Source: a virus
Strand: one strand, 5' to 3'
DNA length: 64,000 nucleotides
Virus record (IMG/VR): IMGVR_UViG_3300005518_000003
Span: 14,564 to 78,563 of that record
Shown: positions 1 through 14,814 of the stretch, in pieces
How positions within the stretch are numbered: the stretch's first letter is position 1
Layout: each line of letters opens with the position of its first letter
Notes under the pieces: generated by a model
What the model saw: the letters and a program-made list of their open reading frames with translations, nothing else
Database searches by the model: none
Told to the model about the DNA's origin: nothing
Program-made: the position numbers and the translations under genes

Positions 1-687
1 GAACGCGATTCGGCACGGTCCCTGAAGACGAATGTCGAGTGCGTTCCAGTCGTGCGCATCGTCCCAGCGCGTTTTGAGATCGTAGAACGTATCGAGCTCA
101 CCCGTTACGCCCTCACCTGGTGGTTTTCCTCCGAGCGGAGGCGTGTACGCCGTGAGCTGCACGTAAAACGGCGTTGGTGTCGCAACGGTATTGAAGAGCA
201 ATCCAGGTCCAGCGGAATCGCGGAACGCGAGGTTCTGCTGATTTCCGCCGGTAAGCGGATCCATCCTTTGCTCTTGAAGTGGCGGACGACCATACGGTTC
301 GTTCTTCCCCATTAGGCGCATGTGCCACGAGATATTTCCGTCCGGCAGCTTGAAATTCGGCGTTGTTACCCACTGCTCGACGACGCGCGGTCCCGCAGGA
401 GGTCCTGTCACGTCGAGCCTGGTACCGAGCGACCAGCCCATGCGAAATCCGCGAAGCCAAACGTTGCACGCTTCCGGAAAATTCGCCGTGCAGAGCAAAA
501 AGAGGAAACGGTTCGTCGGACCGTGGGTGACGAGCGCAGGCACACGAAGGCCAATCGATGACGTTCCGCCGTACGGATCGCCAGCGAGACCCTGCAATGC
601 TTCGTCGATGCCGGTCGAGACGAGCTCGACTCGGCGTCTTGGAATCACCAGGCTTGGATATCGTCGGAGGTGAGCGACTGCGCCCAT
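1..687 (-). CDS. Putative virion structural protein, partial (runs off the left edge; absent from the ORF track)
   Basis: ATG at 687 with GGAGG upstream, overlapping the stop of 696..1364. The frame stays open to base 1: MGAVAHLRRYPSLVIPRRRVELVSTGIDEALQGLAGDPYGG... Confidence 0.7.
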   Translation of the reverse strand, partial: MGAVAHLRRYPSLVIPRRRVELVSTGIDEALQGLAGDPYGGTSSIGLRVPALVTHGPTNRFLFLLCTANFPEACNVWLRGFRMGWSLGTRLDVTGPPAGPRVVEQWVTTPNFKLPDGNISWHMRLMGKNEPYGRPPLQEQRMDPLTGGNQQNLAFRDSAGPGLLFNTVATPTPFYVQLTAYTPPLGGKPPGEGVTGELDTFYDLKTRWDDAHDWNALDIRLQGPCRIAF

Positions 688-695
688 TCAGCCTC

Positions 696-1364
696 CTACG
701 ACTTGCACGCCGTGATGTAGCAGTCCGGAATCTGGATTCCGCACATATCACGAAGTCGAAGCAGCGCTTCGCGATCCGTGATGTTGACGCCGTCGAACTT
801 GTCCGTGTCGGGCGTAAGCGTTTTGAACGTCATCACGACCGTGATTGGGAAGTCCGGGAGCTGGACACGCGCGAGAAAATCGACCTGGAGCTGCTGTTGG
901 TACGTCATCACCCAGATGCCGTTTGGAAATCCGGGTCCTGGCGTTCCGGCGGCTTTCGCGAGCGTCGAGAGTGGCGTGAACTTCGATGCGATCGACGGCC
1001 GCGGCATGCCGACGACGTTGATCTTCGCTTCGATGCCGCTTTGGAGCGAAAAGAAGAAGTCGCTCTGCGGTTGAAGCACGTTCTGCGGCGTGCGGTCGCG
1101 TGTGATCGTGTACTCGATCTCCTCGATGATCGTGTCCGCGACGATCTTCACGTCGCTTCCGACTTCCGGATTCAGATTGCGATCCGGGTTGTCGAACGTC
1201 GTACGGACGTTGATGTAGTAGGGCACGAACGGAATGCCCTGCGCGCGCGCGAGTGCGAGTCGCGGATACCCGAGTGAGAGAAATCGGTAGATGTCCCTCA
1301 GCCAGTGATCGATCCCGCATGCCCCGGCGCAGTCGCCGAATCCCTTCTTGAGCTCGTCATTCAT
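696..1364 (-). CDS. Putative structural protein (minor capsid-like, beta-rich)
   Basis: 222 aa with alternating hydrophobic strands, directly downstream of the capsid candidate. N-terminal KKGFG and Cys-rich termini. Function inferred from position. Confidence 0.5.
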   Translation of the reverse strand: MNDELKKGFGDCAGACGIDHWLRDIYRFLSLGYPRLALARAQGIPFVPYYINVRTTFDNPDRNLNPEVGSDVKIVADTIIEEIEYTITRDRTPQNVLQPQSDFFFSLQSGIEAKINVVGMPRPSIASKFTPLSTLAKAAGTPGPGFPNGIWVMTYQQQLQVDFLARVQLPDFPITVVMTFKTLTPDTDKFDGVNITDREALLRLRDMCGIQIPDCYITACKS

Positions 1365-1375
1365 GGGGTCTCTCG

Positions 1376-1416
1376 ACGCCTCAGCCCCTCGGCCTTTCGG
1401 CGTCGGGGCTTGGCGT
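1376..1416 (-). promoter_or_regulatory. Structured RNA element, copy 1 (3' of capsid candidate)
   Basis: ACGCC-A-AGCCCC-GAC-GCC-GAAA-GGC-CGA-GGGGCU-GA-GGCGU. Matches copy 2 with compensatory changes. An extra GCGGC-GAAA-GCCGC hairpin lies at 1422-1439. Confidence 0.75.
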
Positions 1417-1444
1417 AGCTAGCGCGGCTTTCGCCGCGTCAGCG

Positions 1445-2827
1445 TTAGATGTTGACGAAGCCGCACTCGCACTCCGAGCAGAGTGCATCGCGCGCGTCCG
1501 CGTTGTTGCGGAGGAACGTCATGAGGTCGCCGTCGAGCTCGCGGCCCTTGACGAGCATCGAGAGCTTGAGGTCGCCCATCTTGTAGAAGGCGCGCTCCGC
1601 GAAGACCGCCTGCGAGTAGTTGACGATCGCCGCGGGCGGCACGTCGAGCGATTGCTCGAGCATGACCGGCGAGCCGCTGACCGTTCCGCCGAAGTTGATG
1701 TTCGTCGCGTCGACGATGAACGGAGGAATCACGCCGTTGCCCTGACGGCCCTGCGTGACCGAGAGGTAGTCGCGCATGATGTCGCCCTGGGTGTCGTCGA
1801 CCTGCTGGAGGACGAGACCGATCGGGATGCCTGCGCCGATGATGTACGGCAAATCGAGCTTTCGGAACTCGCTGTTGCCGCGGAGCATGTGACGGAGGTC
1901 CATGCCGCCGTAGGTGACGGGCGCGAGCTCGAACGCGCGCGACGGACGGAATTCACCGACCGGTACGCCGCCGACCGTGAGCACGCCCTCGCGGATGAAG
2001 TCGATCTTGAGGAAGTCGAACGCCGTTCCGAGCGAGTCGTAGTAGTCGTTCGTGCGACGAATCTCGGCGAGAACTGCGTCCTCGCTGAGACCCGACGAGC
2101 CGTCCTGAGCGTTCGGCGGCATGTACGCCGTGTGACGGAGGATTTCGTCGAGGATGTTCCACTTCGTGCCGATCGCCCAGCGGAGATCGTACGCGCGCAC
2201 GAGGTGCCACGCGACGTAGTTGGCCCACGCACCCCACTGAAGGATGGCAGGACGCATGAACTGCGTCGGCGTCTGACCGTCGAAATTGTCACCGAGGGCT
2301 CCGTTCACGATGTCGGCGACGGTGAAGACATCGGGGCTCGGCGGCTTCGCTTGGCCGACGACCGGGTGCGTCCACGCGTTGCCGAGAATCGACCACGACT
2401 TCGGCTCGGGTTCGAGGTGAAATCCGATCGCGCACGCGAGCATGTGGGTGTTGAGCTCGCCGTTCTGCGGCATCGTCGATTCGACGAATGCCACACCTTC
2501 GACGCTCTTCGAATTTCCGAAGAGATCGATCTCGCTCGAGAAGTTCTTCTCGATCGCCTGGTCGGTGATCGGGCCGACGAGCGTCCAGCGCGTTTGATGG
2601 ATCGTGTCCATCGCGTAGGACGCGCAGTCCATCGAGCTCTTGAGGAGGTTCGTGACGCCAACCGCGCCAAGACCCTTCTTCACGCCGCCTTCGTAAGAGC
2701 GGACCTTCTCGATGCTGATCGGCTCGCCAAGGCCGACTTTCTTGATCTCGATCTCCCGCTTGATTTGGCGGAACTTCGGGCGGAACGGGTGTTTCGGAGT
2801 CGACGGTTTGGCAAGTGCGGTGTCCAT
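1445..2827 (-). CDS. Candidate major capsid protein (non-HK97, possibly jelly-roll)
   Basis: 460 aa, strong GAGGAGA RBS, strongly biased codon use, beta-rich, flanked by paired RNA elements. Basic N-terminal arm with two GLG sites. Fold not verified. Confidence 0.45.
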   Translation of the reverse strand: MDTALAKPSTPKHPFRPKFRQIKREIEIKKVGLGEPISIEKVRSYEGGVKKGLGAVGVTNLLKSSMDCASYAMDTIHQTRWTLVGPITDQAIEKNFSSEIDLFGNSKSVEGVAFVESTMPQNGELNTHMLACAIGFHLEPEPKSWSILGNAWTHPVVGQAKPPSPDVFTVADIVNGALGDNFDGQTPTQFMRPAILQWGAWANYVAWHLVRAYDLRWAIGTKWNILDEILRHTAYMPPNAQDGSSGLSEDAVLAEIRRTNDYYDSLGTAFDFLKIDFIREGVLTVGGVPVGEFRPSRAFELAPVTYGGMDLRHMLRGNSEFRKLDLPYIIGAGIPIGLVLQQVDDTQGDIMRDYLSVTQGRQGNGVIPPFIVDATNINFGGTVSGSPVMLEQSLDVPPAAIVNYSQAVFAERAFYKMGDLKLSMLVKGRELDGDLMTFLRNNADARDALCSECECGFVNI

Positions 2828-2890
2828 GCTGTTCTCCTCTGCTCTCGTGGTTGCCGCAGCCGGGTCACGAGGTGCAGTTTGGTTTTTTCA

Positions 2891-2932
2891 ATGCCTCAGC
2901 CCCTCGGGCTTGCGCCGTTGGGGCTCTGGCAC
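2891..2932 (-). promoter_or_regulatory. Structured RNA element, copy 2 (5' of capsid candidate)
   Basis: GUGCC-AG-AGCCCC-AAC-GGC-GCAA-GCC-CGA-GGGGCU-GA-GGCAU, GNRA loop, covaries with copy 1. Confidence 0.75.
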
Positions 2933-2947
2933 GCTATGTCGAAGCGG

Positions 2948-4684
2948 TTACTCGGCCGCTTCGTCGTTGCGACGGTGTCTCGACGTTCCGGGGAACCGGA
3001 GCGAGGAGTTGTCCTCTTCCACCACGAGTCCGAGACCGCGCGCCGCGCTGTCGAGAACCTGCGGATGGAATTGTCCGAGCGTCGCGAAGCTGCCGCGATG
3101 CTTGGCGATGAGCTGATCGGCGTACTTGCGCTGATCCGGTGTCGCATGTCCTGCCGCATGCGCAGCGAGCACTTCGCGATTCTTTCGAAGCGCGACGTAG
3201 GCTTCTCCGTGCGAGCGTAGGACGTCCGTTGCTCCCGAAACGTCGCCGAGTCCACGGACTCCCACCGGAGCGTACGCGGAAACCGGAGGGCTTTGTGGCG
3301 TCGTCGGAACCATGATGCCCGGAGGCATTTGTTCCGGCGGAACTTGTGGCTGACGCGAAATCGCCGGAGGCGGCACGAATCCGCCTGGCGGGGTGTACGG
3401 GCCTTGATTCACGACGGGCGGATATCCTCCGCCCGGTGGAATCGTCGGATGCGGACCGCCTTGTGGAAGTTGCATTTGCGGCATCACGCTCGGCCCGGTT
3501 GAAGGACCGGACGGAATCATGCTGCGACATCCGCAAGAACCGCCGAGGCCAGGGTACTGACCGCAGGTCGAGCACGGGGCTCCGGCGAGACCGACCGCCG
3601 TGCGCTGTCCGATTTCTCCCGAGAAAAGCTTCTTCCCGGTCGAGTCGGATGCGCTGTCCTTGAAGAGGTACGCCGCGAGATCGTCGACGGCTTTTCCGAC
3701 GAGACGAACGGCTGCGCCGAATCCGAAGAACTGAAGCGCGCTGCGCCCCATCGGCGATCGAATGAACTGCGCGACGACGAGCGGTGTTCCGGCCACGGCG
3801 ACGCCCGCACCAACGCGCGGAAGGAAGTCGTCCATGAGCGGAGCTTCGATGAAGCGCATCGCGAGCGCTTGACCTTTGTCGTCCTTGCGTTCTCGCATCG
3901 TCACGAGACGATCGATCACGTCGGCAGCGGTGTAACCGATGGCGCCCGTGACGAGGCCGACGACGAGCTCCCAGCCAGTGACCGGGTTCTCCATCGCTCC
4001 GCGACGGGAGTGACGACGGCGACGGAGACGCTCACCCGTGATGTGTCCGACGAGGCGCGTGCGGTAGCGCTTGCCGTGCGACTTGCCTCCGCGGCGACGT
4101 GTGAAACGTCCGCGACGGGTGCGACGCACCTGGCGCGGGAACTCGCGCGCACGCGCGCGACGACGACGACCACCTCGACGGCGACGGCGGCGGCGCGGAG
4201 CTTCGGCTGCACGCGCGTAGCGGCGGCGACGGCGGCGGCGCGGAGCTTCTCGAGAACGACGTGCGCGACCTCGACGACGGCGACGGCGGCGCGGAGCTTC
4301 CTCACGCGATTGACGACGACGACGACGACCACCCTTGCGACGTTTGCGGGCCATGTGCACGGTCTCCTTGGAATGAGAACGGCGTCTCGCCCGCACGCGA
4401 GATCGTTTTCTTCGCTTGAGTGAACCGCGACGGCGGCGCTTCGTCAAGCCCTCTTCTTTCGCATGACGACGGCGACGGCGTTTGCCGGCACGACGCTTTG
4501 CAGCTTTCCCGCCGAAACCAGCCTTGATCTGCGCAGGAGTCAGCCTGCGTCGTTTTCCTCTTCGCGCCATCTTTCTGCCTCGTTTTCGTGGGGTGTCTGC
4601 ATGAAGGACCACCGCCCGCCTCGAAGCAGCCTGCTCTGGCTCGGAACGCGCTCGCGAGAGAATCTCTCGATAGTCGACGGGCAT
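2948..4684 (-). CDS. Arg-rich (protamine-like) core/membrane polyprotein
   Basis: About 200 aa of poly-Arg tracts, then MENP, hydrophobic helices, a Cys cluster and a Pro/Gln-rich region with GLG sites. The start may be MARRGK at 4570. Confidence 0.7.
   Translation of the reverse strand: MPVDYREILSRARSEPEQAASRRAVVLHADTPRKRGRKMARRGKRRRLTPAQIKAGFGGKAAKRRAGKRRRRRHAKEEGLTKRRRRGSLKRRKRSRVRARRRSHSKETVHMARKRRKGGRRRRRQSREEAPRRRRRRRGRARRSREAPRRRRRRRYARAAEAPRRRRRRRGGRRRRARAREFPRQVRRTRRGRFTRRRGGKSHGKRYRTRLVGHITGERLRRRRHSRRGAMENPVTGWELVVGLVTGAIGYTAADVIDRLVTMRERKDDKGQALAMRFIEAPLMDDFLPRVGAGVAVAGTPLVVAQFIRSPMGRSALQFFGFGAAVRLVGKAVDDLAAYLFKDSASDSTGKKLFSGEIGQRTAVGLAGAPCSTCGQYPGLGGSCGCRSMIPSGPSTGPSVMPQMQLPQGGPHPTIPPGGGYPPVVNQGPYTPPGGFVPPPAISRQPQVPPEQMPPGIMVPTTPQSPPVSAYAPVGVRGLGDVSGATDVLRSHGEAYVALRKNREVLAAHAAGHATPDQRKYADQLIAKHRGSFATLGQFHPQVLDSAARGLGLVVEEDNSSLRFPGTSRHRRNDEAAE
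4180..4300 (-). repeat. Three tandem coding repeats, EAPRRRRRRR
   Basis: GGCGGCGCGGAGCTTC recurs three times on the + strand. Confidence 0.75.
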
Positions 4685-4759
4685 GACGGTGTTCCCACGT
4701 CACCCGCACGTAACGCTTGGGAGAAGTCTACGCGCAGATCGAGAGATTACGCAACAAGG

Positions 4760-5275
4760 TCACGGAACCACGATTCCGCGGTCATCGACGATGCATCCGT
4801 CCGGCAGCTCGATCCGATAGAACTGCTCCGAGGTCTTTCGACGCCAAAAGGAATAGAGCACCGCGGGTTTCTTGAACGCTCGGCTCTTGAATGGATAGAG
4901 AAGAAGCTGCGTGAGATTCTTCGCCTTGTTGAATTTATGGTGAAAGAACCCCGGATGCTTTGTGCCTGCTCGGTCGTAGTAGATCTCGTTGATCTCTCCG
5001 AGCTTGTGCCACGTGGAAATATTTTCTGGCGGAAGATCGATTCCGCCTTCGAACACGGTTGCGCTGCGACCAAAATAATCTGAACCTTCGTCGCTCTCTG
5101 TCTTTCCACGATCGAACTCACCGATCAGCAAGCTGCACGTGGGCCAGTCTTCACCACTCTCGTCGTAGAGCATCGCCGCGTCGCGAGCCGGCTTGACCCT
5201 CTTACTCCCGCTACCGAGACCGATTCCCGGAGCGCGTAGGTTGATCTCGATCTTGCGTCCCATGCAGATCAGCAT
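4760..5275 (-). CDS. Hypothetical virion-module protein
   Basis: 171 aa, co-oriented in the operon, GIGLGS near the N-terminus. Confidence 0.65.
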   Translation of the reverse strand: MLICMGRKIEINLRAPGIGLGSGSKRVKPARDAAMLYDESGEDWPTCSLLIGEFDRGKTESDEGSDYFGRSATVFEGGIDLPPENISTWHKLGEINEIYYDRAGTKHPGFFHHKFNKAKNLTQLLLYPFKSRAFKKPAVLYSFWRRKTSEQFYRIELPDGCIVDDRGIVVP

Positions 5276-5281
5276 GGAGCC

Positions 5282-6118
5282 TCACTTCGCTCGACGACTC
5301 GCCCACCAAGCTTTGATGTCGTCTTTGTACACAAAGCCGAGAACACCCGCGGTGACGACTGTTCCGCCAAGCATCCACCAACCCCACGGGAACTCCGGCC
5401 CGGCCTTTGGCGTAGTGCATCCGCCAGCCACGAACTTCTGCGCTTCGAGAAGATCGTCGCGCGCCTTCAAATCTTCCTTCGACCAGGGCGCGTTCGGATT
5501 CTGGATGTGATAGTCGACGATTTTGTTGTAGTCCGCATGCAATCGAATGAGCTCGCGATCACATTCGATCTTCGAAAGAATGTCGTCGATGACGAGCGAC
5601 GCGAAGTAGATCAAAGCGATGGCGATCGCTGTAACCGCAAGCATCTGCGCGATGACGGCAACGATCATCACGGGGATGAGCACCTCGATGTTTCCCGTCG
5701 AGTTGTTTTTCATCTGCGTGGCGTCAGCCGGCGTTGGCGTTTTGATTCCGCGTCGCTTCGCAATAATCTGAAGCGTACGAGCCAGCGTATCTGTCGGATT
5801 GTCCGAGCCGCCAGCGCTGATATTTTTGTCGTTCGCGAGCTTCGCGTTGATCGCACTCGAGACCATGAGCGTGATGAAGTCTTGCTTCGAAGGGTTGTCG
5901 TTCGCGATCCACTTTTTGGCGGTGGCTCTTGCATTCGCGGAGGCGAACGCCTGATCCCACGAGCGGCCCTGTACTTGTGCCCAAAACTGTTTGATGAGTA
6001 CGTACGGATTGAGCGAAAACGCAGGAAGTTTGAGCGCTGCGGTGACGTCGTCGATGGGTGCGCCAAGGCCCACGATGCGAAGTGCTTTCTGAAAATCTTC
6101 GTAGCGTACGAGGGTCAT
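5282..6118 (-). CDS. Membrane protein (internal and C-terminal TM segments)
   Basis: Long hydrophobic stretch plus C-terminal WGWWMLGGTVVTAGVLGFVY; GLGAP near the N-terminus. Confidence 0.7.
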   Translation of the reverse strand: MTLVRYEDFQKALRIVGLGAPIDDVTAALKLPAFSLNPYVLIKQFWAQVQGRSWDQAFASANARATAKKWIANDNPSKQDFITLMVSSAINAKLANDKNISAGGSDNPTDTLARTLQIIAKRRGIKTPTPADATQMKNNSTGNIEVLIPVMIVAVIAQMLAVTAIAIALIYFASLVIDDILSKIECDRELIRLHADYNKIVDYHIQNPNAPWSKEDLKARDDLLEAQKFVAGGCTTPKAGPEFPWGWWMLGGTVVTAGVLGFVYKDDIKAWWASRRAK

Positions 6119-7002
6119 CGGCTTCTCACCTTTCGAATGACGACGGCAGCGAGAGCCGACGCAGCGACGATACCACCGCCGACCACGGCCGCCTGCTTGT
6201 TCGTGAGCTTCGGAAGTGAGGGCAGATCGGGAAAGAAATCGCCAAGCTCACCGAGACCACGAACGAGACCGCGAATCGGCTTCGCGAGCTGCGGTGCTGC
6301 GGCTTGGACGCCCTGACCGACGTTATACCAAACCTGTTCTTGCGGATCCGGACCGAGCACCATCTCGCTCGGAAGTTGATGGTACTGGCCGTCACTTCCA
6401 AGACCAAGCACCGGTAGTGCTCCGATTCCGACGAACTCGGCTTGAAGACCCGCGTACGCCGGATCCTTCCACGGGTTCATGCGTGTCTCACGCGACGCCT
6501 TCGCCTTTTCACCCGCCGTGAAGCGCGGCGTGGTCGCATCGAGTGGAAACCATTTCCCATCTTCGAGTTTCACTTCGCAAATCACGTGCTGTTGATGCTC
6601 CGACCCGAAGAACTGGCGAACAATCTCAACTTCGAGTCCCGACGCCGCGCAAAGCGACGCGAGTGCCGTCACGAAGCCATCGCAATCCTCGATCGGAATG
6701 CACGCCAAGGCCCCTTCAACGCAGAGCGTGATCGGCGCGGCTTGGATCAACTCCGTGCCCGGTGGATCGTGCGTGTACCCAATGCTTCGTTTGCAATGGT
6801 TGAAGTGCGCGGTCGCTTTCTCTTTGTTCGTTCGCGGAAACATCGCTTGGCGAAGGATGTTGCCCGCGAAGCTGCGAAAAATTGGCATGGGAGCAGCCTC
6901 CCGAACCTTTTCGCAGATTTTGTGCAGCGACTTTTGGATCCCTTCCTCGCCGTCCGGATACGACTCACGAAGGTACGGAACGCCAGCGGAGGAGGTGTTC
7001 AT
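6115..7002 (-). CDS. Transglutaminase-like cysteine protease with C-terminal membrane anchor
   Basis: DCDG (Cys), QHVICEV (His) and WFPLDAT (Asp) in the order of the transglutaminase-core triad; C-terminal TM followed by a basic tail. Confidence 0.8.
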   Translation of the reverse strand: MNTSSAGVPYLRESYPDGEEGIQKSLHKICEKVREAAPMPIFRSFAGNILRQAMFPRTNKEKATAHFNHCKRSIGYTHDPPGTELIQAAPITLCVEGALACIPIEDCDGFVTALASLCAASGLEVEIVRQFFGSEHQQHVICEVKLEDGKWFPLDATTPRFTAGEKAKASRETRMNPWKDPAYAGLQAEFVGIGALPVLGLGSDGQYHQLPSEMVLGPDPQEQVWYNVGQGVQAAAPQLAKPIRGLVRGLGELGDFFPDLPSLPKLTNKQAAVVGGGIVAASALAAVVIRKVRSR

Positions 7003-7005
7003 CGA

Positions 7006-7398
7006 TCAGTCCTGAATGCACATATACGGGAAGTTCGGCATTCCCGTAGGAACGGAGTGATATCCCGGAGGACACGGATTCGCTTTCGGGTTGGAAAGAT
7101 TCTGCGCGAGCTGACTCGCAACATTTGCAAGATTGACGGGTTGCAATTGCGGCGGCGGCTGCGGTGGTGGCGTCGTATCGACCGGCTTGACGTTTCCAGG
7201 CGGACCGGTTGTCGTCGGCGTCGATCCAGGAGGAAGCGGTTGCTTTCCGCTCGCGATGTCCTCGGTCGTCGATTTCTTCGTAAGGTAGTTCGTGAGGAGA
7301 ACGGCGACGGTCGTTGTTATCGCGGCTGTTGCCCCGGCAATAAGGAGCTGCATCCCCGTGCTCTCGACCGGATTTCTTCGCGCTCTTCGCATCACCAC
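7006..7398 (-). CDS. Small membrane protein with RRNP leader
   Basis: MRRARRNPVES, then a TM helix and a Pro/Thr-rich tail. Confidence 0.7.
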   Translation of the reverse strand: MVMRRARRNPVESTGMQLLIAGATAAITTTVAVLLTNYLTKKSTTEDIASGKQPLPPGSTPTTTGPPGNVKPVDTTPPPQPPPQLQPVNLANVASQLAQNLSNPKANPCPPGYHSVPTGMPNFPYMCIQD

Positions 7399-7970
7399 AC
7401 CGGAAGCGGGTTGGCTGGGAGCAGAAACCCAATCTGCGAAGCGATGGCTTGAACGCTCTTATAGAGCGCGTTGATCAACTCCGAAGAGAGCTGGAGCCCT
7501 TTCATCGCGTTCACCCATGCGGCAACGTCGTTCAAGAGCTGTTGGTTATTCTGCTGGTTCGGCTGACCGTACGCTTGCGGATTCGGCGCGGGCGGTGGTG
7601 TTCCGCCTCCTCCGCCTCCGCCTGGTGGAAGAGTTTTTCCACCGCCACCCATTTGCGCTGAACTTGGACGCAGCGCGAAGTAGAGGCCCGTCCCTAGGAT
7701 GGCTGCACCGCCGAGACCACCGAGGATGTAGAGCGTCGATTTTTTCATGACCGGATTGCTGCGTGCACTTCTTCGGCGTGCGCGTCGACGTTTTACGTAG
7801 CGACGAGAATAATCGCGTCGATCAAGGCTTGCAGATCCACGCGAACCGTGAGGAAGCCATCGCAGAGCTTCTCGTTTGTTCCTCGCTTGGACGTAAAAGT
7901 ACGACGACCTGCTTTCCCCAGGATAGCGGTAGGTCACCTTGTACGATTTGAAATCCCACATCGCGGGCAT
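7392..7970 (-). CDS. Membrane protein with basic domain, RSNP motif and TM
   Basis: RBS before ATG 7970; RRRARRRSARSNPV, then TM ending GLYFALRP. Confidence 0.7.
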   Translation of the reverse strand: MPAMWDFKSYKVTYRYPGESRSSYFYVQARNKREALRWLPHGSRGSASLDRRDYSRRYVKRRRARRRSARSNPVMKKSTLYILGGLGGAAILGTGLYFALRPSSAQMGGGGKTLPPGGGGGGGTPPPAPNPQAYGQPNQQNNQQLLNDVAAWVNAMKGLQLSSELINALYKSVQAIASQIGFLLPANPLPVW

Positions 7971-8034
7971 CCCTCTTTCACGCACGACGCGCCCGCACGA
8001 GCGCCTGCATGTCGTCAGCATACGACGAGGTGGG

Positions 8035-9135
8035 TCACTTCGACAATTCGGCCAATTTGTTGATGGTGGTGGCGATCTTTATAACGACGCTCAGCGCAGA
8101 GAGTGCGGGGCCGAAAGCCAAGGAAAACACTGTTCCGATCGTGGCCATGAACATCTCGAAGACCATCCCAGCATCGACCACTTTGATGCATGGATTTACC
8201 TTCTCGTCGTGCGACTCGAACATGTCGATCAGTCCCGCGATCATCATTCCGCCAACAGACGCGTGGAGCATCGTGAGCGATTTTTGCGGAAGAGGTTTCC
8301 CTTCGCTGTCGGTCGTCGGAAGCGTTTTGTCGTTTTTCTTTGCGAGGTCGCGTGCAAATTGTGCGAGCCGATCGCGCGTCCACGCGGGCATTGCGAACAT
8401 AAAGAGCGAAGAAACATCACCTGGAAGAGAAAACGGCAACGTGATCCCGTATTTCTTCAACGCGGTGAGCACACCTCCGAAGTCTCCGCTGTCCAGTCCT
8501 TTTTTGATGCTGGCCTCCATCGAAGCGACGACCGCTGCGTTGAATGCTCCTGGATCTGCGTGAGGATCGATCGCGTTCCCAGCGTAGCGAATCTGTTTTC
8601 CTTTGTCTCGCGGGTCGCATTGGAGATCGACTCCACACGTCTTGATGATGTCAGGACCGCGATAGACCGTGTTGAAGAACGGGTAGGCCCAATCGTTTCC
8701 GAGCTGAACAACCGCTGCGGCCAACGTCTGGCAATGCGAATGACTCGCAAGTTCGTCGGTCGTGAATTTATTTTCTTTGTTGTAGAAGGCCGCCAGAATG
8801 AGATCGATCACTTTTACGCCGCCGTGCGTGAAGATTTTTCGAAACGCATCGGCTTGAAGAAAAATCGGCGTGCCATTCCCGAGTAGATCCGCCATGGCCG
8901 TCAGCCGTTTCGTAAGCGCTGCGATCTCGATTCCTCGAAGCACGGACACTTGTGCGTACGTCGAGCTCACGGCGAGCATGCTCTCGATCGCGGATTTTTT
9001 CTTTGGCCTTGTCGCCGCGTAGACGATTCCGCCGAAGAGAGCAACGCCAGCACCGATGCCACCGTAAACCGTGAGCTTCGGGTGCTTGTGATAGAAGCGC
9101 TTCGCACTCCTCTTGACGTCGCTGACGAGTTTCAT
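8035..9135 (-). CDS. Membrane-anchored protein
   Basis: N-terminal TM ending GGIVYAATRP and a hydrophobic C-terminus; 366 aa. Confidence 0.7.
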   Translation of the reverse strand: MKLVSDVKRSAKRFYHKHPKLTVYGGIGAGVALFGGIVYAATRPKKKSAIESMLAVSSTYAQVSVLRGIEIAALTKRLTAMADLLGNGTPIFLQADAFRKIFTHGGVKVIDLILAAFYNKENKFTTDELASHSHCQTLAAAVVQLGNDWAYPFFNTVYRGPDIIKTCGVDLQCDPRDKGKQIRYAGNAIDPHADPGAFNAAVVASMEASIKKGLDSGDFGGVLTALKKYGITLPFSLPGDVSSLFMFAMPAWTRDRLAQFARDLAKKNDKTLPTTDSEGKPLPQKSLTMLHASVGGMMIAGLIDMFESHDEKVNPCIKVVDAGMVFEMFMATIGTVFSLAFGPALSALSVVIKIATTINKLAELSK

Positions 9136-9443
9136 GACCGAGTCGCTGAAATCACACCACCGCCGCCACCGTTACTTCCGCCGCCACCGATCTGATTTCC
9201 GTGTTCATCGACCCACGACACGTTTGGAGAGTATGGAGCGAACGCTGCGTAGACTCCCGGAACAGCAGTGGGAGAGATCGTCGTTACGTTTGGCTTGGCT
9301 CCATCACCGCTTGTCGGTGGTCTCGTTCCTTGGGGAGAGACGATCTGCTTCGGCCTAGTGGCGTAGTAGACCGCCCCGCCGATGCCAGCCGCACCTGCGA
9401 GGAGTCCAACGATCCACGCTGCCTTCTTTGCACCCTTCGTCAT
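9132..9443 (-). CDS. Small membrane protein
   Basis: N-terminal TM ending GGAVYYATRP; Gly-rich tail. Confidence 0.7.
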   Translation of the reverse strand: MTKGAKKAAWIVGLLAGAAGIGGAVYYATRPKQIVSPQGTRPPTSGDGAKPNVTTISPTAVPGVYAAFAPYSPNVSWVDEHGNQIGGGGSNGGGGGVISATRS

Positions 9444-9455
9444 CCGGCAACGATA

Positions 9456-9644
9456 TCACTGGTCGGACACCGCCACCAAGATCGCGATCAGAGTGAGCGG
9501 CCAAAACGCGGAAACGAACATCGCTCCGATCGTTACTTCGACCAATTCTTCCGTCGTCGCGCGGTGTTTCCAGGGACGGATCACGGCCGCGCAGAGGCCC
9601 ATTGATCCAGTAAACCCGAGAAGCCAGATGTGAAAGATTGTCAC
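9456..9644 (-). CDS. Small two-TM protein
   Basis: GTG start just after the stop of 9647..11158; two hydrophobic segments. Confidence 0.5.
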   Translation of the reverse strand: MTIFHIWLLGFTGSMGLCAAVIRPWKHRATTEELVEVTIGAMFVSAFWPLTLIAILVAVSDQ

Positions 9645-9646
9645 GA

Positions 9647-11158: not shown

Positions 11159-11182
11159 GTTGGTCCCTTTTCTGAAATTCGT

Positions 11183-12358
11183 TTACGCGACGAGAGGTGT
11201 CGCACTCGTGACCGGCGTGATCGCGATCTGCTGAATCGTTCCCTGAAGGAACTGAAAAAACGCTTCTGCTTGCGCTTGCGTATTTCCAGTAACGGGCGGA
11301 AAGAATTCCTCGAACTGAGGTGTGATCGTGAACGTCGTTCCCGGAAAGTAGCCTTCGCCTTCGGCGATCGTGTCGATGCGACCGAGACCCATCCGTGCAT
11401 GCGCTGTTGCACCGGTTCCTGGAGCGACGCCCGTGTCGCGAATGAGAATCGATGGAACGGTGACGTAGTTGTCACCAGGATCGGTGACCGTAATGGCCGT
11501 GATGGGAAATCCAGGGCCAGCCCCAACCGTGACGACACCTTGCGCAGGAAGACCTTCGGCCATGACGGCGAAGAGTTTCGCAGGACGGCGAGGAGCGATT
11601 CCGGTCGTCGTCGTAATGAAGACATCCGGCACCGATTCGTAGACGCGACCCATATCGACGATCGTGATCGACTGAACGCGACCTCGGGCGTCGAGCTGAA
11701 GAATTCCCTGCGCAGGAATCGGTGGCGAATTTCCTTCCGGACCGCCACCCTGAATGTTGAGGATCGCTGTTGCCGGGTCATATCCCTCGCCTGGATCCGC
11801 GATGTTGATGTAGCGAACCGCTCCGCCACGTCCACCCTTACGCGTGTCGAAGTTGAAGCCCGCAGGCGGAAGGCCTCCAAGCCACGTGATCCTCGTCGTC
11901 GAGGCCGTGTATCCGGCCCCTCCGGTGTCGAGCGCAGTTTCGTACGCAGCCATGTACGCCCTGAAGAGCGCATCACGTTGGGTCGGTCTCCTCGGAACGA
12001 CGTTTCCGTTCACGATGGGAGCGAGCGGTTCGCGCTGGTTGTTGTTCGCCCGAATGATCGGCGGAAGAATGAAATCACGACCGCGATTCGCAACGTCCAC
12101 GGTTACCTGCTGGATGCGACTTGTGTTCGTGATCGTCGGCGGGTTCAAGAGCGCGGCGACTGAAGGCTCAAAGCCGAGCACGATCGTACGCACGATTGGA
12201 TTCACGGCAGGGATCGTGATGGAGTCCGAAATGATCCGCAGGCCGAGCGCCTGAAGAATGTCTGGCGGGATGGGGGCGCTCGCAATGAACGGCTGAATCT
12301 TGGTCGAGCTGATCCCGAGCGCCTGGACCGTGTAAACGAGCGTGACCTGGGTACCCAT
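11183..12358 (-). CDS. Beta-repeat virion surface/spike-like protein
   Basis: Repeats of I/V-x-I/V-x-D-x-G-x-G-Y...P-x-V-x-I, typical of phage structural beta modules. Confidence 0.55.
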   Translation of the reverse strand: MGTQVTLVYTVQALGISSTKIQPFIASAPIPPDILQALGLRIISDSITIPAVNPIVRTIVLGFEPSVAALLNPPTITNTSRIQQVTVDVANRGRDFILPPIIRANNNQREPLAPIVNGNVVPRRPTQRDALFRAYMAAYETALDTGGAGYTASTTRITWLGGLPPAGFNFDTRKGGRGGAVRYINIADPGEGYDPATAILNIQGGGPEGNSPPIPAQGILQLDARGRVQSITIVDMGRVYESVPDVFITTTTGIAPRRPAKLFAVMAEGLPAQGVVTVGAGPGFPITAITVTDPGDNYVTVPSILIRDTGVAPGTGATAHARMGLGRIDTIAEGEGYFPGTTFTITPQFEEFFPPVTGNTQAQAEAFFQFLQGTIQQIAITPVTSATPLVA

Positions 12359-12370
12359 GCCGCGAGACTA

Positions 12371-12850
12371 CTATGTGCTAGGAGGCGAGACCACCGCCGT
12401 GGTCGGTTGACCGTTTTCTACTTCTTCGTCTTCGTCGAGAACCTCGTCGAATTCGGCTGCGTATCCACCCAAATCGGCCGCAAGCGAATCGAAAAGGGTA
12501 TCCGTGTCGAGGTACCGCGTGAGGCTATGTGTCGGTGCCGTTTTCTGGACGGTCCACCTCACCGGGAAACGTTCCGGTGCCGGCTTCTCGGGAACTCCGT
12601 AGATTCGCGCGCAAACTTCGTCTTCGAAGATCGCCACGATCTTGTGCTCCGCGCTGAGCGGTGAAGTCTCTCCGACCTGGAACTTCTGAAGCTCTCGCTT
12701 GAAGTTGAACCAGTCGAACGAAAACGTCTGCGGCACGTTGGACGGATACCCCTCTTCGCCTTCTGGACGCTCGACGTTCGCACGCACGCAGATCCGTCCC
12801 CAAATGTCAGCTTTCTTCGATTGTTCTTCCGGCATGTTGGTCCCTTTCAA
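12371..12850 (-). CDS. Hypothetical protein
   Basis: Co-oriented ORF with RBS and acidic tail. Confidence 0.6.
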   Translation of the reverse strand: MKGTNMPEEQSKKADIWGRICVRANVERPEGEEGYPSNVPQTFSFDWFNFKRELQKFQVGETSPLSAEHKIVAIFEDEVCARIYGVPEKPAPERFPVRWTVQKTAPTHSLTRYLDTDTLFDSLAADLGGYAAEFDEVLDEDEEVENGQPTTAVVSPPST

Positions 12851-12864
12851 AAAGGGAGCTTACT

Positions 12865-14814
12865 CTACCGGGAACGCACCTTGTGAAGCTTTTTGTCGGC
12901 GAACGAATAGAACTCGCCTTCGCCCATCACCACGTGGTCGATGAACGCGATTCCAGAGGCTTTGCAAGCATTTTTCATTGCTTTGGTCAGGTCGGCATCG
13001 GCATCCGAAAAATCCGCTCCGCCGCTCGGATGGTTGTGCAGGATCGCAAGCCCTTTCGCGCCGCGATCGATGGCCGGCTTGAGGACGTCAGCAGGATCGA
13101 CGGCAACGCGATCGCGCTGACCTACGTGAACGATGGCGACCCCGCGGAGGTCGGAATGGATATCGAGCAGGATCGCGCAGAGGTGCTCCTTGTCCTGCTT
13201 CGAAGCCCACGGATGCATCATGTTGTAGATGTCGCGTGAATTCTTGATCGGACCGATTTGTTGCGCGACCTCGCGAATCTCTCGAAAGTCATCCGCGTTG
13301 CGCTCGACCTTCACGAACGGAATTCCATCCGTCACCTCAACGGGATTCTCACCCACGTGTTTTGCATGTGGCCAGTGCTGTCGCGCGCTTGCTCGTACTT
13401 GATCTTCAGATTCACCACGAATGATGTTGATCGAGTACCCGTGACGATCACGCGCAACCGCTTCCCACTCTTGGCGGACTTCGTCGTACGCGATCTCTAC
13501 GGTCACGACCTTTCGCTCGCGTCCCTCGGCCGCCCCGCCACATCCGTGCTCGCAGCCGCATTCGTTCGCTTCACGCGAGATGCCACCAGGAACACCTCGT
13601 TGCGGATCCAACTTAGACAAAGCCTCGGCATTGCTCGGGAGCTTCCTCACCCGCTTACCAGTGTTTGGCCAGTGATAGAGCCCCTTCTTGTAAAAGAGCT
13701 CGCGCTCGGTGTAGCTGCCGTCATCCCGCGGCGTGTACGTCCGAACGACCCATTTCTTTTTGTCGTCCCAATACTTCACGAAGTGCGTCGCTGAGAACAT
13801 TCCACGATGAGCTTCATGGCGAAGCGCATCGTCGATGTTGTTGAAGTCGCGCGCTTCACGTGGCCCGCTCTCTGGAGGAAGTAGTGGAGGAGTCTCCGGT
13901 CCCGAGTGGAGAATGAGATGCTCCGATTTCATCTTGCCTTTAGAGCCGTCGCGCCAGAGAACGGTGATCTTTTCGCCTTCGACGGAGATCACGACGCCGG
14001 GATTGAGTTTCTTTGCAAGCCTTGGAAGAACGCCAGGCGCAAGCTGCACGTCGTCACCGCGTTGGAAATCGCGCGCCTGGACTGGGTTCTCGCGGAGCAA
14101 CCGATCGACGCCCGACTTCGCCTGTCGCAACGCCTCACCACGTGTGGTCGCACCCCAATGACCTCCACGAACGATGGCCGACCACCACGTGGTTCCGTCG
14201 TCCATGAGATATTTTTCGAGTCGAATGTTCTCGCCGTGGTAGTCGACCGTCTCGCGTTGTTGGATTCGATCGCGCGCCTCGACGGGGTTCTCGCGAACAA
14301 ACGAGACGCTCGGACGCACCGCAGGCTGCGAATTCGCAAAAGCTTCTGCTTCGCCTTTCGTCTTGAACGGGCCGTGATACTCGCTGCTCCGATCACTTGG
14401 TCTGCGGCCGTATGCGTACCAGACCGTGCTCCCGTCTTTCGGACGCTCTGATGGATGCATCTGATCACTCGAAACGATTCGCCAAGGAATCGGTTGCCTC
14501 CATGCCGGCTGAGGACCGCGACGAGGATTCTCTCGCGCACCCGGACGTCGGATCAGTCCAATGTGCACCGCGTAGTCGTACGCGCTCTCGTGCATCTTTC
14601 GTGGATTGAGGAAGCCGTCTTGAATCGCTTCGCCGACTTGATCATCCCACCACTCAATGATGGTCGCGTCGTTCTTCGCGTTGATCAGCTCGACGTGTGC
14701 TCGGTCACGCTCCTCCCAGGTCGAGAGCCGCGTGTCACTGAGAGACAATTCGGGCACGGAATGACGTCCACGGCGACGGGCTTCTTCGGCGGCGGCGGGA
14801 TTCATTCGAGGCAT
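12865..14814 (-). CDS. Multi-domain (polyvalent) protein with C-terminal RadC/JAB domain
   Basis: C-terminal E...HNHPSG...SDAD...DHVV JAB motif; small domains separated by RENP/GENP linkers. Confidence 0.85.
   Translation of the reverse strand: MPRMNPAAAEEARRRGRHSVPELSLSDTRLSTWEERDRAHVELINAKNDATIIEWWDDQVGEAIQDGFLNPRKMHESAYDYAVHIGLIRRPGARENPRRGPQPAWRQPIPWRIVSSDQMHPSERPKDGSTVWYAYGRRPSDRSSEYHGPFKTKGEAEAFANSQPAVRPSVSFVRENPVEARDRIQQRETVDYHGENIRLEKYLMDDGTTWWSAIVRGGHWGATTRGEALRQAKSGVDRLLRENPVQARDFQRGDDVQLAPGVLPRLAKKLNPGVVISVEGEKITVLWRDGSKGKMKSEHLILHSGPETPPLLPPESGPREARDFNNIDDALRHEAHRGMFSATHFVKYWDDKKKWVVRTYTPRDDGSYTERELFYKKGLYHWPNTGKRVRKLPSNAEALSKLDPQRGVPGGISREANECGCEHGCGGAAEGRERKVVTVEIAYDEVRQEWEAVARDRHGYSINIIRGESEDQVRASARQHWPHAKHVGENPVEVTDGIPFVKVERNADDFREIREVAQQIGPIKNSRDIYNMMHPWASKQDKEHLCAILLDIHSDLRGVAIVHVGQRDRVAVDPADVLKPAIDRGAKGLAILHNHPSGGADFSDADADLTKAMKNACKASGIAFIDHVVMGEGEFYSFADKKLHKVRSR

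Follow-up and report, generated by a model that had tools for sequence, protein, structure and literature searches.

The first 14,814 positions of the window (the whole stretch of 64,000 nucleotides analysed here) hold 16 genes, all on the minus strand according to a codon-usage gene call, close to the about 15 co-oriented genes counted in an earlier sequence-only reading. The gene at the left edge extends 182 nt past it (whole gene G000:C1:14381-15250, 289 aa) and TM-rich genes carry on for ∼6 kb further left; the block is thus cut at this edge, as had been cautioned. The capsid-sized beta-rich protein, the Arg-rich protein and the protease singled out in that reading correspond to the 460-aa, 578-aa and transglutaminase-like proteins of Table 1. 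TM helices, called on the Kyte–Doolittle scale in 19-residue windows at ≥1.66, occur in seven genes (those of the 278-aa protein, the protease and the five membrane proteins in 7006..9644), in line with the at least seven anchored products expected. In the wider module (genome positions 8285-29377), TM genes number 11 of 28 versus 3 of 110 elsewhere (Fisher p 9e-7, threshold 1.8). The five small and medium membrane proteins have no family match in Pfam or PHROGs. This density of TM proteins makes a lipid layer in the virion moderately likely; the proteins could instead mark an outer envelope, or be host-membrane proteins unconnected with the virion.

Table 1. Features of the module and two distant genes (window coordinates)
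Feature	Position	Strand	Basis
p289, penton-like jelly-roll protein; C-terminal 229 of 289 codons in the window	1..687	-	AF2 model, HHIV-2 penton match
p222, 222-aa beta-rich protein, candidate second capsid protein	696..1364	-	Universality, position
Stable RNA hairpins, coding strand, directly 3' of capsid gene	1370..1444	-	MFE -45.5 kcal/mol, z -5.2 vs shuffles
Major capsid protein candidate P0001, 460 aa	1445..2827	-	Beta-rich AF2 model, codon bias, viral jelly-roll matches
Hairpins 5' of capsid gene, including a copy of the downstream GCCCC/GGGGC stem	2828..2947	-	MFE -46.8 kcal/mol, z -3.4
Protamine-like core protein, 578 aa	2948..4684	-	Arg content, charge, position
p171, 171-aa conserved protein between protease and core protein	4760..5275	-	Homologues in 20/38 loci, 5/10 genomes
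Single-pass membrane protein, 278 aa	5282..6118	-	Hydropathy peak 2.69, residues 152-170
Cys protease, transglutaminase-like (papain-type), anchored by a C-terminal TM helix; candidate for virion maturation	6115..7002	-	Pfam Transglut_core E 1.7e-6, above curated cut-off
Five small/medium membrane proteins (7006-7353, 7392-7970, 8035-9135, 9132-9443, 9456-9644)	7006..9644	-	Hydropathy peaks 1.66-2.30
Pro/Gln-rich protein, 503 aa	9647..11158	-	Partly conserved in G001 and in 5 loci
391-aa protein, repeated beta domains; candidate surface/vertex protein	11183..12358	-	PHROG repeat-domain matches
Acidic protein, 159 aa	12371..12850	-	ORF, coding score 42
Multi-module protein, 649 aa, ending with intact RadC-type JAB domain (HNHPSG...SxxD)	12865..14814	-	Pfam RadC E 2.3e-28
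HerA-like P-loop ATPase, 593 aa	18494..20275	-	DUF87 and PDB HerA matches
Membrane-anchored SLT lytic transglycosylase; candidate virion-borne wall-cutting enzyme	42714..43514	-	GLMQ motif and TM

The window belongs to a single contig of 78,563 bp with a 90-bp direct terminal overlap, which gives a genome length of 78.47 kb. IMG/VR classes the record, from a rhizosphere metagenome, as direct terminal repeats, its CheckV completeness is 100% and the contig ends interrupt one serine-recombinase gene, split across both; the genome (G000) is apparently a complete, circular dsDNA molecule. Its relatives come from soil, peat and wetland and form a widespread lineage. The set compared comprises 32 IMG/VR records (this genome and 31 others) of 54–125 kb, 25 of them ≥90% complete, and complete genomes span 67–125 kb. 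No prior description was found in a literature search, so that the lineage, large as had been proposed, is apparently undescribed. The pan-genome of 10 complete genomes has only six universal genes, encoding the Cys protease, the Arg/Lys-rich core protein, the capsid protein, the 222-aa protein, the penton-like protein and the RadC/JAB protein. The order protease, p171, core protein, capsid protein, p222, p289 recurs in every gene-mapped long locus (seven metagenome loci and L003), and all 38 long loci contain the core gene families. The SLT enzyme and an endolysin, together with LysM and peptidoglycan-binding membrane proteins in relatives, point to a bacterial host.

The gene of the 460-aa protein has the highest GC3 in the genome (0.87) and also the top coding score. 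Clustering at 50% leaves 129 representative homologues, and clustering at 90% at least 168 groups, all annotated 'hypothetical'. The confident AF2 model (pLDDT 88, pTM 0.84) is mostly beta, with about 19 strands, and is laid out as a disordered basic N-arm (about residues 1–60) followed by a jelly-roll core with large insertions. Its Foldseek and VIA-align matches are mostly viral jelly-roll capsids, the best in VIA-align being HCIV-1 (6h9c_D, Z 5.2), SPV1 (4.7), PRD1 P3 (4.4), STIV (4.0) and HPV L1 (3.7); P23-77 VP16 and VP17, polyomavirus VP1 and picornaviruses also appear, and no HK97-fold entry is among the matches listed. The best Z lies under the tool's stated typical best for unmatched models (7–8), and such weak scores support only the jelly-roll fold class for the predicted structure, not kinship with any match. 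Whether this shell is of the PRD1 type (Bamfordvirae) has to be weighed here: in such a virus the 460-aa protein would represent a divergent double jelly roll and p289 the penton, with the ATPase at 18494-20275 pumping DNA via a unique vertex into a membrane-lined procapsid. The presence of the PRD1 P3 and STIV coat proteins among the matches fits such an arrangement, as do the about 19 strands, which exceed the needs of one eight-stranded roll. However, single-domain matches cover residues about 62–450 of the model; the rolls are thus not the tandem N- and C-terminal halves of a classical double jelly roll, and no such tandem is recognisable in the model. The P3 alignment, moreover, has an rmsd of 7.3 Å.

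The two smaller proteins next to the capsid gene are equally constant. The p289 AF2 model (pLDDT 80, pTM 0.81) finds its best VIA-align match in HHIV-2 chain 6h82_b (Z 9.2, 120/135 residues, rmsd 3.4 Å), read as the VP9 penton protein (PMC6414509). Next come the HFTV1 turret (8.3), the YomS (7.3) and XepA (7.1) pentamers and the STIV turret (6.7); SPV1 chains also match (Z 5.9). For the capsid protein and p289, the structural comparison proposed in the sequence-only reading returned jelly-roll capsid and penton matches. p289 occurs in 10/10 complete genomes and 38/38 long loci, and so does p222, whose gene always lies between those of the capsid protein and p289. p222 has no match in Pfam or PHROGs. 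Among named ESM-Atlas clusters, those of the PRD1 P3 and PM2 P2 capsid families come nearest to it, a further point for a PRD1-type virus; with scores of only 0.76 and 0.75 this likeness is therefore a lead only.

Domains of the discoidin, CBM, TNF and C1q types match the same beta-sandwich core with similar Z. The block might then encode lectin-like beta-sandwich proteins, secreted or in the membrane, along with a protease on a plasmid-like element, with no virion module at all, the virion being a prediction from sequence. This explanation is very improbable: the element encodes phage-type replication, recombination and lysis genes and has direct terminal repeats, the top matches of p289 are virion vertex proteins, and the block is the sole universal gene set of a lineage with a narrow range of genome sizes. 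A protamine-like gene beside the shell gene would also be hard to explain in a lectin cluster.

The gene of that protamine-like protein immediately precedes the capsid gene in all cases. The protein consists of an Arg-rich N-half, hydrophobic helices, a Pro-rich linker and a C-terminal domain; Arg makes up 20% of its residues, one 150-aa stretch contains 71 Arg and 12 Lys, and its net charge is +96. In its homologues (10/10 genomes) net charges of +60 to +103 are likewise followed by a hydrophobic segment. The protease, also universal (10/10), has a hydropathy peak of 2.34 at residues 271–289, and its triad is conserved in 41 homologues (C107 in 41, H139 in 40 and D155 in 41). G[LIVMF]G sites are enriched in the module (32 observed versus 15.1 ± 3.9 expected). 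Two glycines of the capsid N-arm, G32 and G34, reach ≥90% conservation across 73 sequences and lie where the local pLDDT is 50–59.

Pfam and PHROG searches with p171 give no match, and family matches are likewise absent for the 503-aa protein, a scaffold or sub-capsomer protein at a guess, and for the 159-aa acidic protein. Through its repeat domains, with E 1e-8 to 4e-3, the 391-aa protein matches PHROGs that carry the labels baseplate wedge, head closure, virion structural and tail fibre; it is not conserved across the lineage. A few module proteins match tail- or baseplate-labelled PHROGs via shared repeat or SLT domains. The JAB protein, present in 10/10 genomes, has mostly 200–330 aa and lies upstream of the protease in relatives. 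The SLT gene is far from the module here, but 12 of the 32 long relatives have it ≤10 kb from the capsid gene; tblastn matches occur in 22 loci, and one sequence of alignment A4 has a Pfam SLT match (E 1e-27).

Tailed-phage hallmarks were sought in several ways. All called genes of at least 60 aa (78.5 kb) were compared with PHROGs; most were also compared with Pfam, the exceptions being smaller genes in the replication region. These scans found neither a terminase nor a portal, and no HK97 capsid, tape measure or tail tube (best 25 families in three batch scans). The profiles Terminase_6N, TerL_ATPase, Phage_portal and Phage_capsid found nothing in six-frame searches of G000 and G001 but matched in control genomes, and Terminase_6N is absent from all 32 records. 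The 14.5 kb to the left of the window, inspected for a packaging ATPase or terminase as the sequence-only reading had proposed, hold neither, and this genome has no unexplained ORF of >400 aa able to serve as portal or terminase. The absence of hallmark genes noted from the window alone extends to the complete genome and, for the profiles and records just named, to relatives. An extremely divergent tailed phage, with HK97 capsid, portal and terminase past HMM detection and jelly rolls as decoration, fibre or receptor-binding proteins, is hardly credible. Such domains are indeed frequent in phage decoration, turret and fibre proteins, the p289 matches include the HFTV1 turret, a phage 7-7-1 fibre and Pam1 capsid-associated chains, relatives encode fibre-like collagen-repeat and lectin-like proteins, and many ORFs lack annotation. 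Yet the terminase large subunit is normally the best-conserved phage gene, whereas BLASTP clustering and Walker-A scans reveal, at the sequence level, no ATPase common to the 10 complete genomes with their six universal genes, and it is a jelly-roll protein that is the most codon-biased and most conserved.

The HerA-like ATPase was considered as the packaging enzyme and judged accessory. It belongs to the HerA/FtsK superfamily and matches phrog_2666, labelled 'terminase large subunit', as a PRD1-type motor might. However, no more than three of the 10 complete genomes encode it and it is missing from G001, its gene neighbours are nucleotide-metabolism and recombination genes, and homologues exist outside the lineage, one (42% identity) in a tailed phage that encodes both a terminase and a portal and another in a record without this capsid family. 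Its 593 aa are also far above the roughly 200–250 aa of P9/A32-type ATPases. The PRD1-type explanation is thus unlikely, and of the sequence-only reading the large tailless membrane virus is supported, while the PRD1-type (Varidnaviria) frame, with neither a recognisable tandem double jelly roll nor a conserved FtsK/HerA-type packaging ATPase, is not. A very divergent or host-supplied motor is possible.

Collectively, the block is very probably a non-tailed jelly-roll virion module; the sequence and predicted folds point to jelly-roll capsid proteins, not HK97, amid the many membrane proteins that had been foreseen. The fuller explanation, that positions 1–14,814 and the ∼6 kb to their left form a morphogenesis module working as follows, is the best one and likely. 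The products of its genes most likely form the shell with its vertices, an inner membrane and a core that condenses the DNA, in an uncultured virus of soil bacteria. The 460-aa protein, from its codon bias, conservation and kind of structural match, would be the major shell protein, p289, from its fold match, the five-fold vertex (penton) protein, and p222, from its universality and position, may be a further capsid component. Single-pass membrane proteins would populate a lipid layer, most likely beneath the shell. The composition of the protamine-like protein suggests that its Arg/Lys-rich half neutralises and condenses the genome and that its hydrophobic helices tie it to the membrane. The membrane-anchored Cys-His-Asp protease may mature virion proteins, probably cutting at G-[LIVMF]-G, for instance at the near-invariant G-L-G in the capsid N-arm, a target suggested by the enrichment of such sites and the conservation of this one. 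Since an ATPase common to the lineage is missing, it is tempting to propose that DNA is probably enclosed by co-assembly around the nucleoprotein core, not pumped by a motor, although encapsidation without a motor is a tentative idea.

The closest working analogues of this module are the sphaerolipovirus-type viruses and SPV1. The former (HHIV-2, HCIV-1, SH1 and the Thermus phage P23-77), once placed in the kingdom Helvetiavirae and now in the realm Singelaviria, have vertical single jelly-roll capsid proteins. Their tailless icosahedral particles contain an internal membrane, and their pentons dock on membrane proteins (PMC6414509). The present lineage resembles them in the best matches of p289 (HHIV-2 VP9, Z 9.2) and of the capsid protein (HCIV-1, Z 5.2, weak), in its adjacent capsid genes and in the many membrane proteins of the module, here known from genes. 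It differs in genome size (67–125 kb versus about 17–31 kb, partly from PMC12643093). Further differences are the nil sequence similarity, the missing conserved packaging ATPase, an apparently circular genome with a primase-helicase instead of terminal proteins, and a universal protamine-like protein and Cys protease.

In SPV1 (Sulfolobus polyhedral virus 1, Portogloboviridae; PDB 6OJ0), a jelly-roll shell of VP4 hexamers and VP10 pentamers covers a lipid layer; inside this, a basic protein condenses the circular dsDNA to form a nucleoprotein core (PMC8459092). A maturation protease, for which the present lineage has a candidate, does not figure in that description (PMC8459092). SPV1 chains match the capsid protein (Z 4.7) and p289 (Z 5.9), at low scores; the SPV1 host is an archaeon, its genome has 20 kb and sequence similarity is nil. 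SPV1 VP1 is not known to be protamine-like and membrane-anchored. PRD1-type viruses (Tectiviridae PRD1/PR772, Corticoviridae PM2, Turriviridae STIV) are tailless and membrane-lined, with a jelly-roll coat and a jelly-roll penton, and they carry a lytic transglycosylase in the virion along with numerous small membrane proteins. The structural matches of the capsid protein to P3 and to the STIV coat are shared ground, whereas a recognisable tandem double barrel, a lineage-wide FtsK/HerA-type ATPase and a protein-primed polymerase are not, and the present genomes are five to eight times larger. Finally, in adenovirus, which has the packaging ATPase IVa2 and no membrane, Arg-rich core proteins condense the genome, and virion precursors are cleaved by a Cys protease whose consensus sites contain Gly. 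The protease here is of another fold family, transglutaminase-like, and its cleavage is predicted; the comparison is functional only, an Arg-rich core protein and a Cys protease being found in both.

The left part of the window appears to encode a tailless, jelly-roll virion module, as the sequence-only reading had proposed for a large, membrane-containing bacterial virus, but the PRD1-type frame of that reading is not supported as it stands, the matches to double jelly-roll coat proteins being weak and a lineage-wide ATPase absent. About 15 co-oriented genes had been counted in this module; 16 are called, all on the minus strand, and seven of their products have a clear hydrophobic helix, matching the at least seven transmembrane (TM) anchors announced. 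The capsid-sized β-rich protein, the Arg-rich protein and the protease of the same reading correspond to a 460-aa product, a 578-aa product with 20% Arg and a protein matching Transglut_core, respectively. The suspected truncation at the left edge is confirmed by the missing 14.5 kb (L001), where TM-rich genes extend ∼6 kb further left.

The contig (G000:C1) is single and 78,563 bp long, and the window covers its bases 14564-78563. Its first 90 bases are repeated at its end, IMG/VR classes it as having direct terminal repeats, CheckV rates it 100% complete, and a serine recombinase (resolvase/invertase) gene is divided between its ends. Therefore, the genome is treated as a complete molecule of ∼78.47 kb, circular or circularly permuted. 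A related genome (G004) carries an IMG/VR provirus flag, which, beside the split recombinase gene, suggests that some members of the lineage may integrate. The sequence is found in two rhizosphere metagenome DNA runs, which may be its source, and no RNA run is listed as containing it. A codon-usage call on the genome gives 138 genes, the majority on the minus strand. Outside the module, they form a typical phage set for replication, recombination and lysis (primase-polymerase/VapE protein, SF2 helicase, Dam methylase, Sak4-like annealing protein, PD-(D/E)XK nuclease), with ThyX, HNH endonucleases, SLT transglycosylase, endolysin and a tandem GroES also annotated. The last, a 214-aa protein, matches Cpn10 (GroES) twice (E 1.8e-28) and shows weak conservation near relatives' capsid genes; it may be a viral co-chaperonin for folding the capsid. 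A 165-aa protein resembles the N-terminal domain of dATP/dGTP diphosphohydrolases (MazZ-type, PF18909, E 3.5e-6), is 48% identical to a protein of a distant relative (G001) and adjoins ThyX and a Lar-like zinc protein; this neighbourhood hints at nucleotide-pool manipulation or modified bases. Further right, nearly all members of a run of small genes lack a family match; the matches include a TPR protein, a GDSL lipase, an Rv2525c-like glycoside hydrolase, RNase H and an SLT enzyme.

Positions of the features discussed, in window coordinates unless prefixed by L001 (the 14.5 kb left of the window) or by L009, L024 or L075 (loci of relatives)
Feature	Position	Strand	Remarks
Virion module, 16 genes	1-14814	minus	
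p289, 289 aa	1-687	minus	cut by left edge
p222, 222 aa	696-1364	minus	
Hairpin	1370-1444	minus	MFE -45.5 kcal/mol, z -5.2
Capsid protein, 460 aa	1445-2827	minus	
Hairpin	2828-2947	minus	MFE -46.8 kcal/mol, z -3.4
Basic core protein, 578 aa	2948-4684	minus	
p171, 171 aa	4760-5275	minus	
Hydrophobic-helix gene	5282-6118	minus	hydropathy
Predicted protease	6115-7002	minus	hydrophobic helix (hydropathy)
Hydrophobic-helix gene	7006-7353	minus	hydropathy
Hydrophobic-helix gene	7392-7970	minus	hydropathy
Hydrophobic-helix gene	8035-9135	minus	hydropathy
Hydrophobic-helix gene	9132-9443	minus	hydropathy
Hydrophobic-helix gene	9456-9644	minus	hydropathy
RadC/JAB protein	12865-14814	minus	C-terminal RadC-type JAB domain
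MazZ-type protein, 165 aa	15012-15509		
HerA-like ATPase, 593 aa	18494-20275	minus	
Run of ∼45 small genes	42170-62927	minus	
Serine recombinase, two parts	63647-63910; L001:4-642		
Module with G-[LIVMF]-G excess	1-12358; L001:8285-14384		
GroES-type protein, 214 aa	L001:9945-10589		
Protein with capsid-derived stretch, 113 aa	L001:11877-12218		∼2.3-2.7 kb left of window
Relatives' collagen-repeat or Laminin_G_3/pectate-lyase-like proteins	L075:15928-19668; L024:18172-19506; L009:15264-17987		

The gene of the 460-aa capsid protein has the strongest codon bias of the genome (GC3 0.87). It is bracketed by two hairpin regions with a similar GCCCC...GGGGC stem and a GNRA-type inner loop, which may be transcript-stabilising or terminator-like elements around what would be the most expressed gene. 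Its homologues, all unnamed, comprise 129 representatives at 50% clustering and at least 168 clusters at 90% identity, and the longest contigs carrying them concentrate at 60-82 kb. Identity to the main subgroup of the lineage is 31-36%, and the genome is taken as a divergent branch. The AlphaFold2 model, built from a 73-sequence alignment (pLDDT 88, pTM 0.84), has a basic disordered N-arm (residues 1-60) followed by a β-rich body. Foldseek lists for this model consist, at marginal E-values, nearly entirely of viral jelly-roll capsids (papillomavirus L1, hepevirus, astrovirus), with no HK97 protein among the matches listed; only the kinds of protein listed are used, the TM-score (∼0.1-0.2) and rmsd (12-33 Å) values being meaningless for this model and for that of p289. 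Among 48,161 chains compared with VIA-align, the best match is HCIV-1 chain 6h9c_D (Z 5.2, 132 residues, 4.0 Å), followed by SPV1 (Z 4.7) and by HHIV-2, PRD1 P3, P23-77 VP16 and VP17, and PBCV-1 (Z 3.8-4.2), and a second look gives PRD1 P3 at Z 4.4 (175 aa, rmsd 7.3 Å), STIV at 4.0 and HPV L1 at 3.7, all scores below the typical best score that VIA-align states for unmatched models. Their support extends to the fold class of the model, a jelly roll and not HK97, but does not reach kinship. Targets with a single barrel (110-150 residues) align over residues 62-450, which argues for a predicted core of one barrel with its strands spread through the whole chain and large inserted domains. Such a barrel would differ from the N-half/C-half layout of classical double jelly rolls. 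A tblastn search with the capsid protein against 50,697 phage records gives no match, phmmer and profile searches with its family against PDB sequences give chance hits only, and the ESM Atlas offers no usable match. In L001, a 113-aa protein with an N-terminal TM helix contains a ∼36-44-aa stretch copied from the capsid protein; in tblastn, it matches relatives' capsid genes at 61-72% identity, and no separate copy of its gene is present in the loci inspected, the matches there being the capsid gene itself.

The neighbouring p289 gives a clearer structural signal. Its full-length AlphaFold2 model (29 homologues; pLDDT 80, pTM 0.81) has a top VIA-align match that stands out, HHIV-2 chain 6h82_b (Z 9.2, 120 of 135 residues, 3.4 Å). 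In HHIV-2 and HCIV-1, the capsid subunits are labelled A-X and a, and the HHIV-2 penton protein VP9 is disordered at its first 40 residues (PMC6414509). Since chain b covers residues 39-173, we infer that it is VP9. Further matches are the HFTV1 turret (8.3), YomS (7.3), XepA (7.1), the STIV turret protein (6.7) and nucleoplasmin cores (∼6.5). As the chain read as VP9 is thus followed by other five-fold or pentameric jelly rolls, p289 is a probable penton. For p222 there is a single lead: among named ESM-Atlas clusters, those closest to it are the capsid families of PRD1 P3 and PM2 P2, with weak scores. Comparison by hhalign reveals no relation among the capsid, p222 and p289 families.

The module belongs to a widespread lineage. 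Scans returned 80 related metagenome loci and 40 from IMG/VR, and the metagenome record titles seen, together with run metadata, name soil, rhizosphere, wetland and groundwater. In all 38 loci of at least 12 kb, the capsid gene is accompanied by the same core gene families, and the order in every mapped locus is protease, (p171), Arg/Lys-rich protein, capsid protein, p222, p289, then membrane proteins. LysM and peptidoglycan-binding domains are found on these membrane proteins in relatives, where collagen-repeat or lectin-like proteins, variable in length, come next. In some relatives, the region downstream of the capsid genes encodes a Laminin_G_3/pectate-lyase-like protein and proteins with collagen-triple-helix repeats, of up to 1246 aa; these are probably vertex fibres or receptor-binding proteins. 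The present genome is devoid of such proteins and has a 391-aa repeat protein in their stead. Clustering of ORFs from ten genomes, the present one and nine classed complete by IMG/VR or CheckV (67-125 kb), leaves six universal genes only, encoding the protease, the capsid protein, the basic core protein, the RadC/JAB protein, p289 and p222; the primase-helicase occurs in eight of the ten. A genome-contig scan found only two short MAG contigs (Chloroflexota, 4.4 kb; Polyangiaceae, 2.3 kb), with viral genes throughout, from which no host is deduced. A literature search, incomplete in coverage, found no description of such a lineage.

Two of the universal proteins may bear on the core and on maturation. 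The protease scores 28.7 bits against Pfam PF01841 (Transglut_core; cut-off 23), and C107, H139 and D155 are conserved in 41/41, 40/41 and 41/41 homologues, so that it has the Cys-His-Asp triad of this papain-type fold and is a predicted protease, with a C-terminal TM anchor. Module proteins contain 32 copies of the motif G-[LIVMF]-G versus 15.1 ± 3.9 expected from shuffles, and the rest of the proteome has 19 versus 24.8. The tripeptides, roughly doubled over expectation in the module, often follow a basic or hydrophobic residue near N-termini. Two glycines of the capsid N-arm, G32 and G34 in the motif V-G-L-G, reach at least 90% conservation across the family in an arm that is otherwise variable and modelled with low confidence; a conserved cleavage site would look like this, and cleavage is putative. 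The 578-aa core protein has 71 Arg in one 150-residue stretch, and in all ten complete genomes its counterpart has a net charge of +60 to +103 with a hydrophobic segment after; it is read as a putative DNA-condensing, membrane-tethered protein. Under a strict hydropathy threshold, a strong TM helix is found in 11 of 28 proteins of the wider block versus 3 of 110 in the remaining genome (Fisher p 9e-7). This enrichment, and the membrane anchors of the protease and the wall-binding proteins, indirectly suggest a lipid bilayer in the virion.

Hallmarks of tailed phages are not recognised. The sequence-only reading had recognised no terminase, portal, HK97 capsid, tape measure or tail gene, and neither the first four nor a tail tube appears in scans with PHROGs (all called genes of at least 60 aa) and Pfam (most genes, the smaller ones of the replication region being covered by PHROGs only), the results of three batch scans comprising the best 25 families. 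Six-frame searches of this genome and G001 with Terminase_6N, TerL_ATPase and one Pfam family each for portal (Phage_portal) and HK97 capsid (Phage_capsid) are negative, and control genomes are positive. Nor does Terminase_6N match any of the 32 related records searched, of which 25 are at least 90% complete. The large terminase, HK97 capsid and portal that define Caudoviricetes thus seem to be missing, a very divergent portal or capsid being possible.

A packaging ATPase is equally elusive. Across 38 loci, the 10 kb on either side of the capsid gene contain no conserved Walker-A family, and no ATPase is common to the ten complete genomes. Accordingly, the ATPase beside the capsid genes that marks vertical single jelly-roll (sphaerolipovirus/P23-77) viruses has no counterpart, nor is the FtsK/HerA-superfamily (A32/P9-type) ATPase of PRD1-type viruses found at the level of the lineage. 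In three genomes, the sole Walker-A ORF is a RecD-like helicase. The HerA-like ATPase was considered as the motor and rejected, as it occurs in three of ten complete genomes, is absent from G001 and has homologues in unrelated phages: its N-terminal 332 residues are 42% identical to the ‘HerA helicase’ of a 43-kb tailed phage (MW202482) that has its own terminase and portal, and another homologue lies in a 73-kb record without this capsid family. A profile from the three proteins found no further members, and the gene is accessory. The protein also matches phrog_2666, labelled ‘terminase large subunit’; given its identity to the ‘HerA helicase’, this label looks unreliable for the family. In p171, GEFDRGKT was rejected as a Walker A motif, the protein being too short and a convincing Walker B not seen. 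A motor supplied by the host, or one diverged beyond recognition, is possible; because no ATPase is common to the lineage, encapsidation by co-assembly, as in SPV1, is the simplest reading.

Under co-assembly, viral membrane proteins would mark a patch or vesicle of host membrane, on which the membrane-anchored, protamine-like protein would condense the circular genome. A jelly-roll shell would be closed over the membrane by p289 pentons and by capsomers in which p222 may accompany the 460-aa protein, vesicle and shell assembling around the condensed genome. The anchored Cys protease would then trim precursor arms and mature the particle at G-L-G sites. Entry would rely on wall-binding and wall-cutting membrane proteins and on vertex fibres. 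It is tempting to propose, as a possibility more than a probability, a deep and perhaps realm-level lineage of 67-125 kb bacterial dsDNA viruses that encapsidate in this way, by protamine condensation, vesicle and jelly-roll shell and protease maturation, without a packaging motor. To our knowledge, an encapsidation logic like that of SPV1 or adenovirus has no precedent in bacterial viruses, and we know of no described tailless prokaryotic virus whose genome is not several times smaller than 67-125 kb.

Among bacterial and archaeal viruses, the described tailless and membrane-lined ones have small genomes (roughly 10-45 kb), and a prokaryotic dsDNA virus with a large genome is assumed to be a tailed phage using terminase. 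Metagenomes from soil, peat and rhizosphere commonly contain the present lineage, whose complete genomes of 67-125 kb number in the dozens. It would show that bacterial jelly-roll capsids scale to phage-sized genomes, that such genomes can do without a packaging ATPase, and that protamine-like DNA condensation and proteolytic maturation, known from eukaryotic viruses, are used by bacterial viruses too. Marker-based virus classification also has a blind spot here, as ‘hypothetical’ is the annotation of all six lineage-wide genes; these genes are ready markers for host hunting and ecological surveys. Genome size, protamine-like core protein, protease-site pattern and lack of a shared packaging ATPase stand out in this lineage, which is known from sequence.

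Judged from genes and models, the groups nearest by design would be the sphaerolipovirus/P23-77-type viruses and SPV1, and the virus is not filed as a member of either, nor of the PRD1-type group. With PRD1-type viruses, it has in common the general plan and, by the predicted fold of p289, a single jelly-roll penton (a Bamfordvirae feature). Of their hallmarks, the tandem double jelly roll is matched weakly (P3, Z 4.4; STIV, Z 4.0) and the A32/P9-type ATPase is not lineage-wide, and therefore the virus is not filed in any family compared. The sphaerolipovirus/P23-77 type, characterised by two adjacent single jelly-roll capsid proteins forming heteromeric capsomers, provides the best match of p289 (the HHIV-2 penton) and weak matches of the capsid protein (coat proteins of HCIV-1, HHIV-2 and P23-77, Z 4.0-5.2). 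In SPV1, the circular DNA and a basic protein are wound together into a core, around which lie a membrane and a jelly-roll shell (PMC8459092). Matches to SPV1 are weak (Z 4.7, 5.9) and there is no sequence similarity; jelly-roll proteins, a universal highly basic protein and a genome with terminal overlap fit the Portogloboviridae design, and a nucleoprotein core without a motor would do so too. The likeness to SPV1 is one of design, not of membership.
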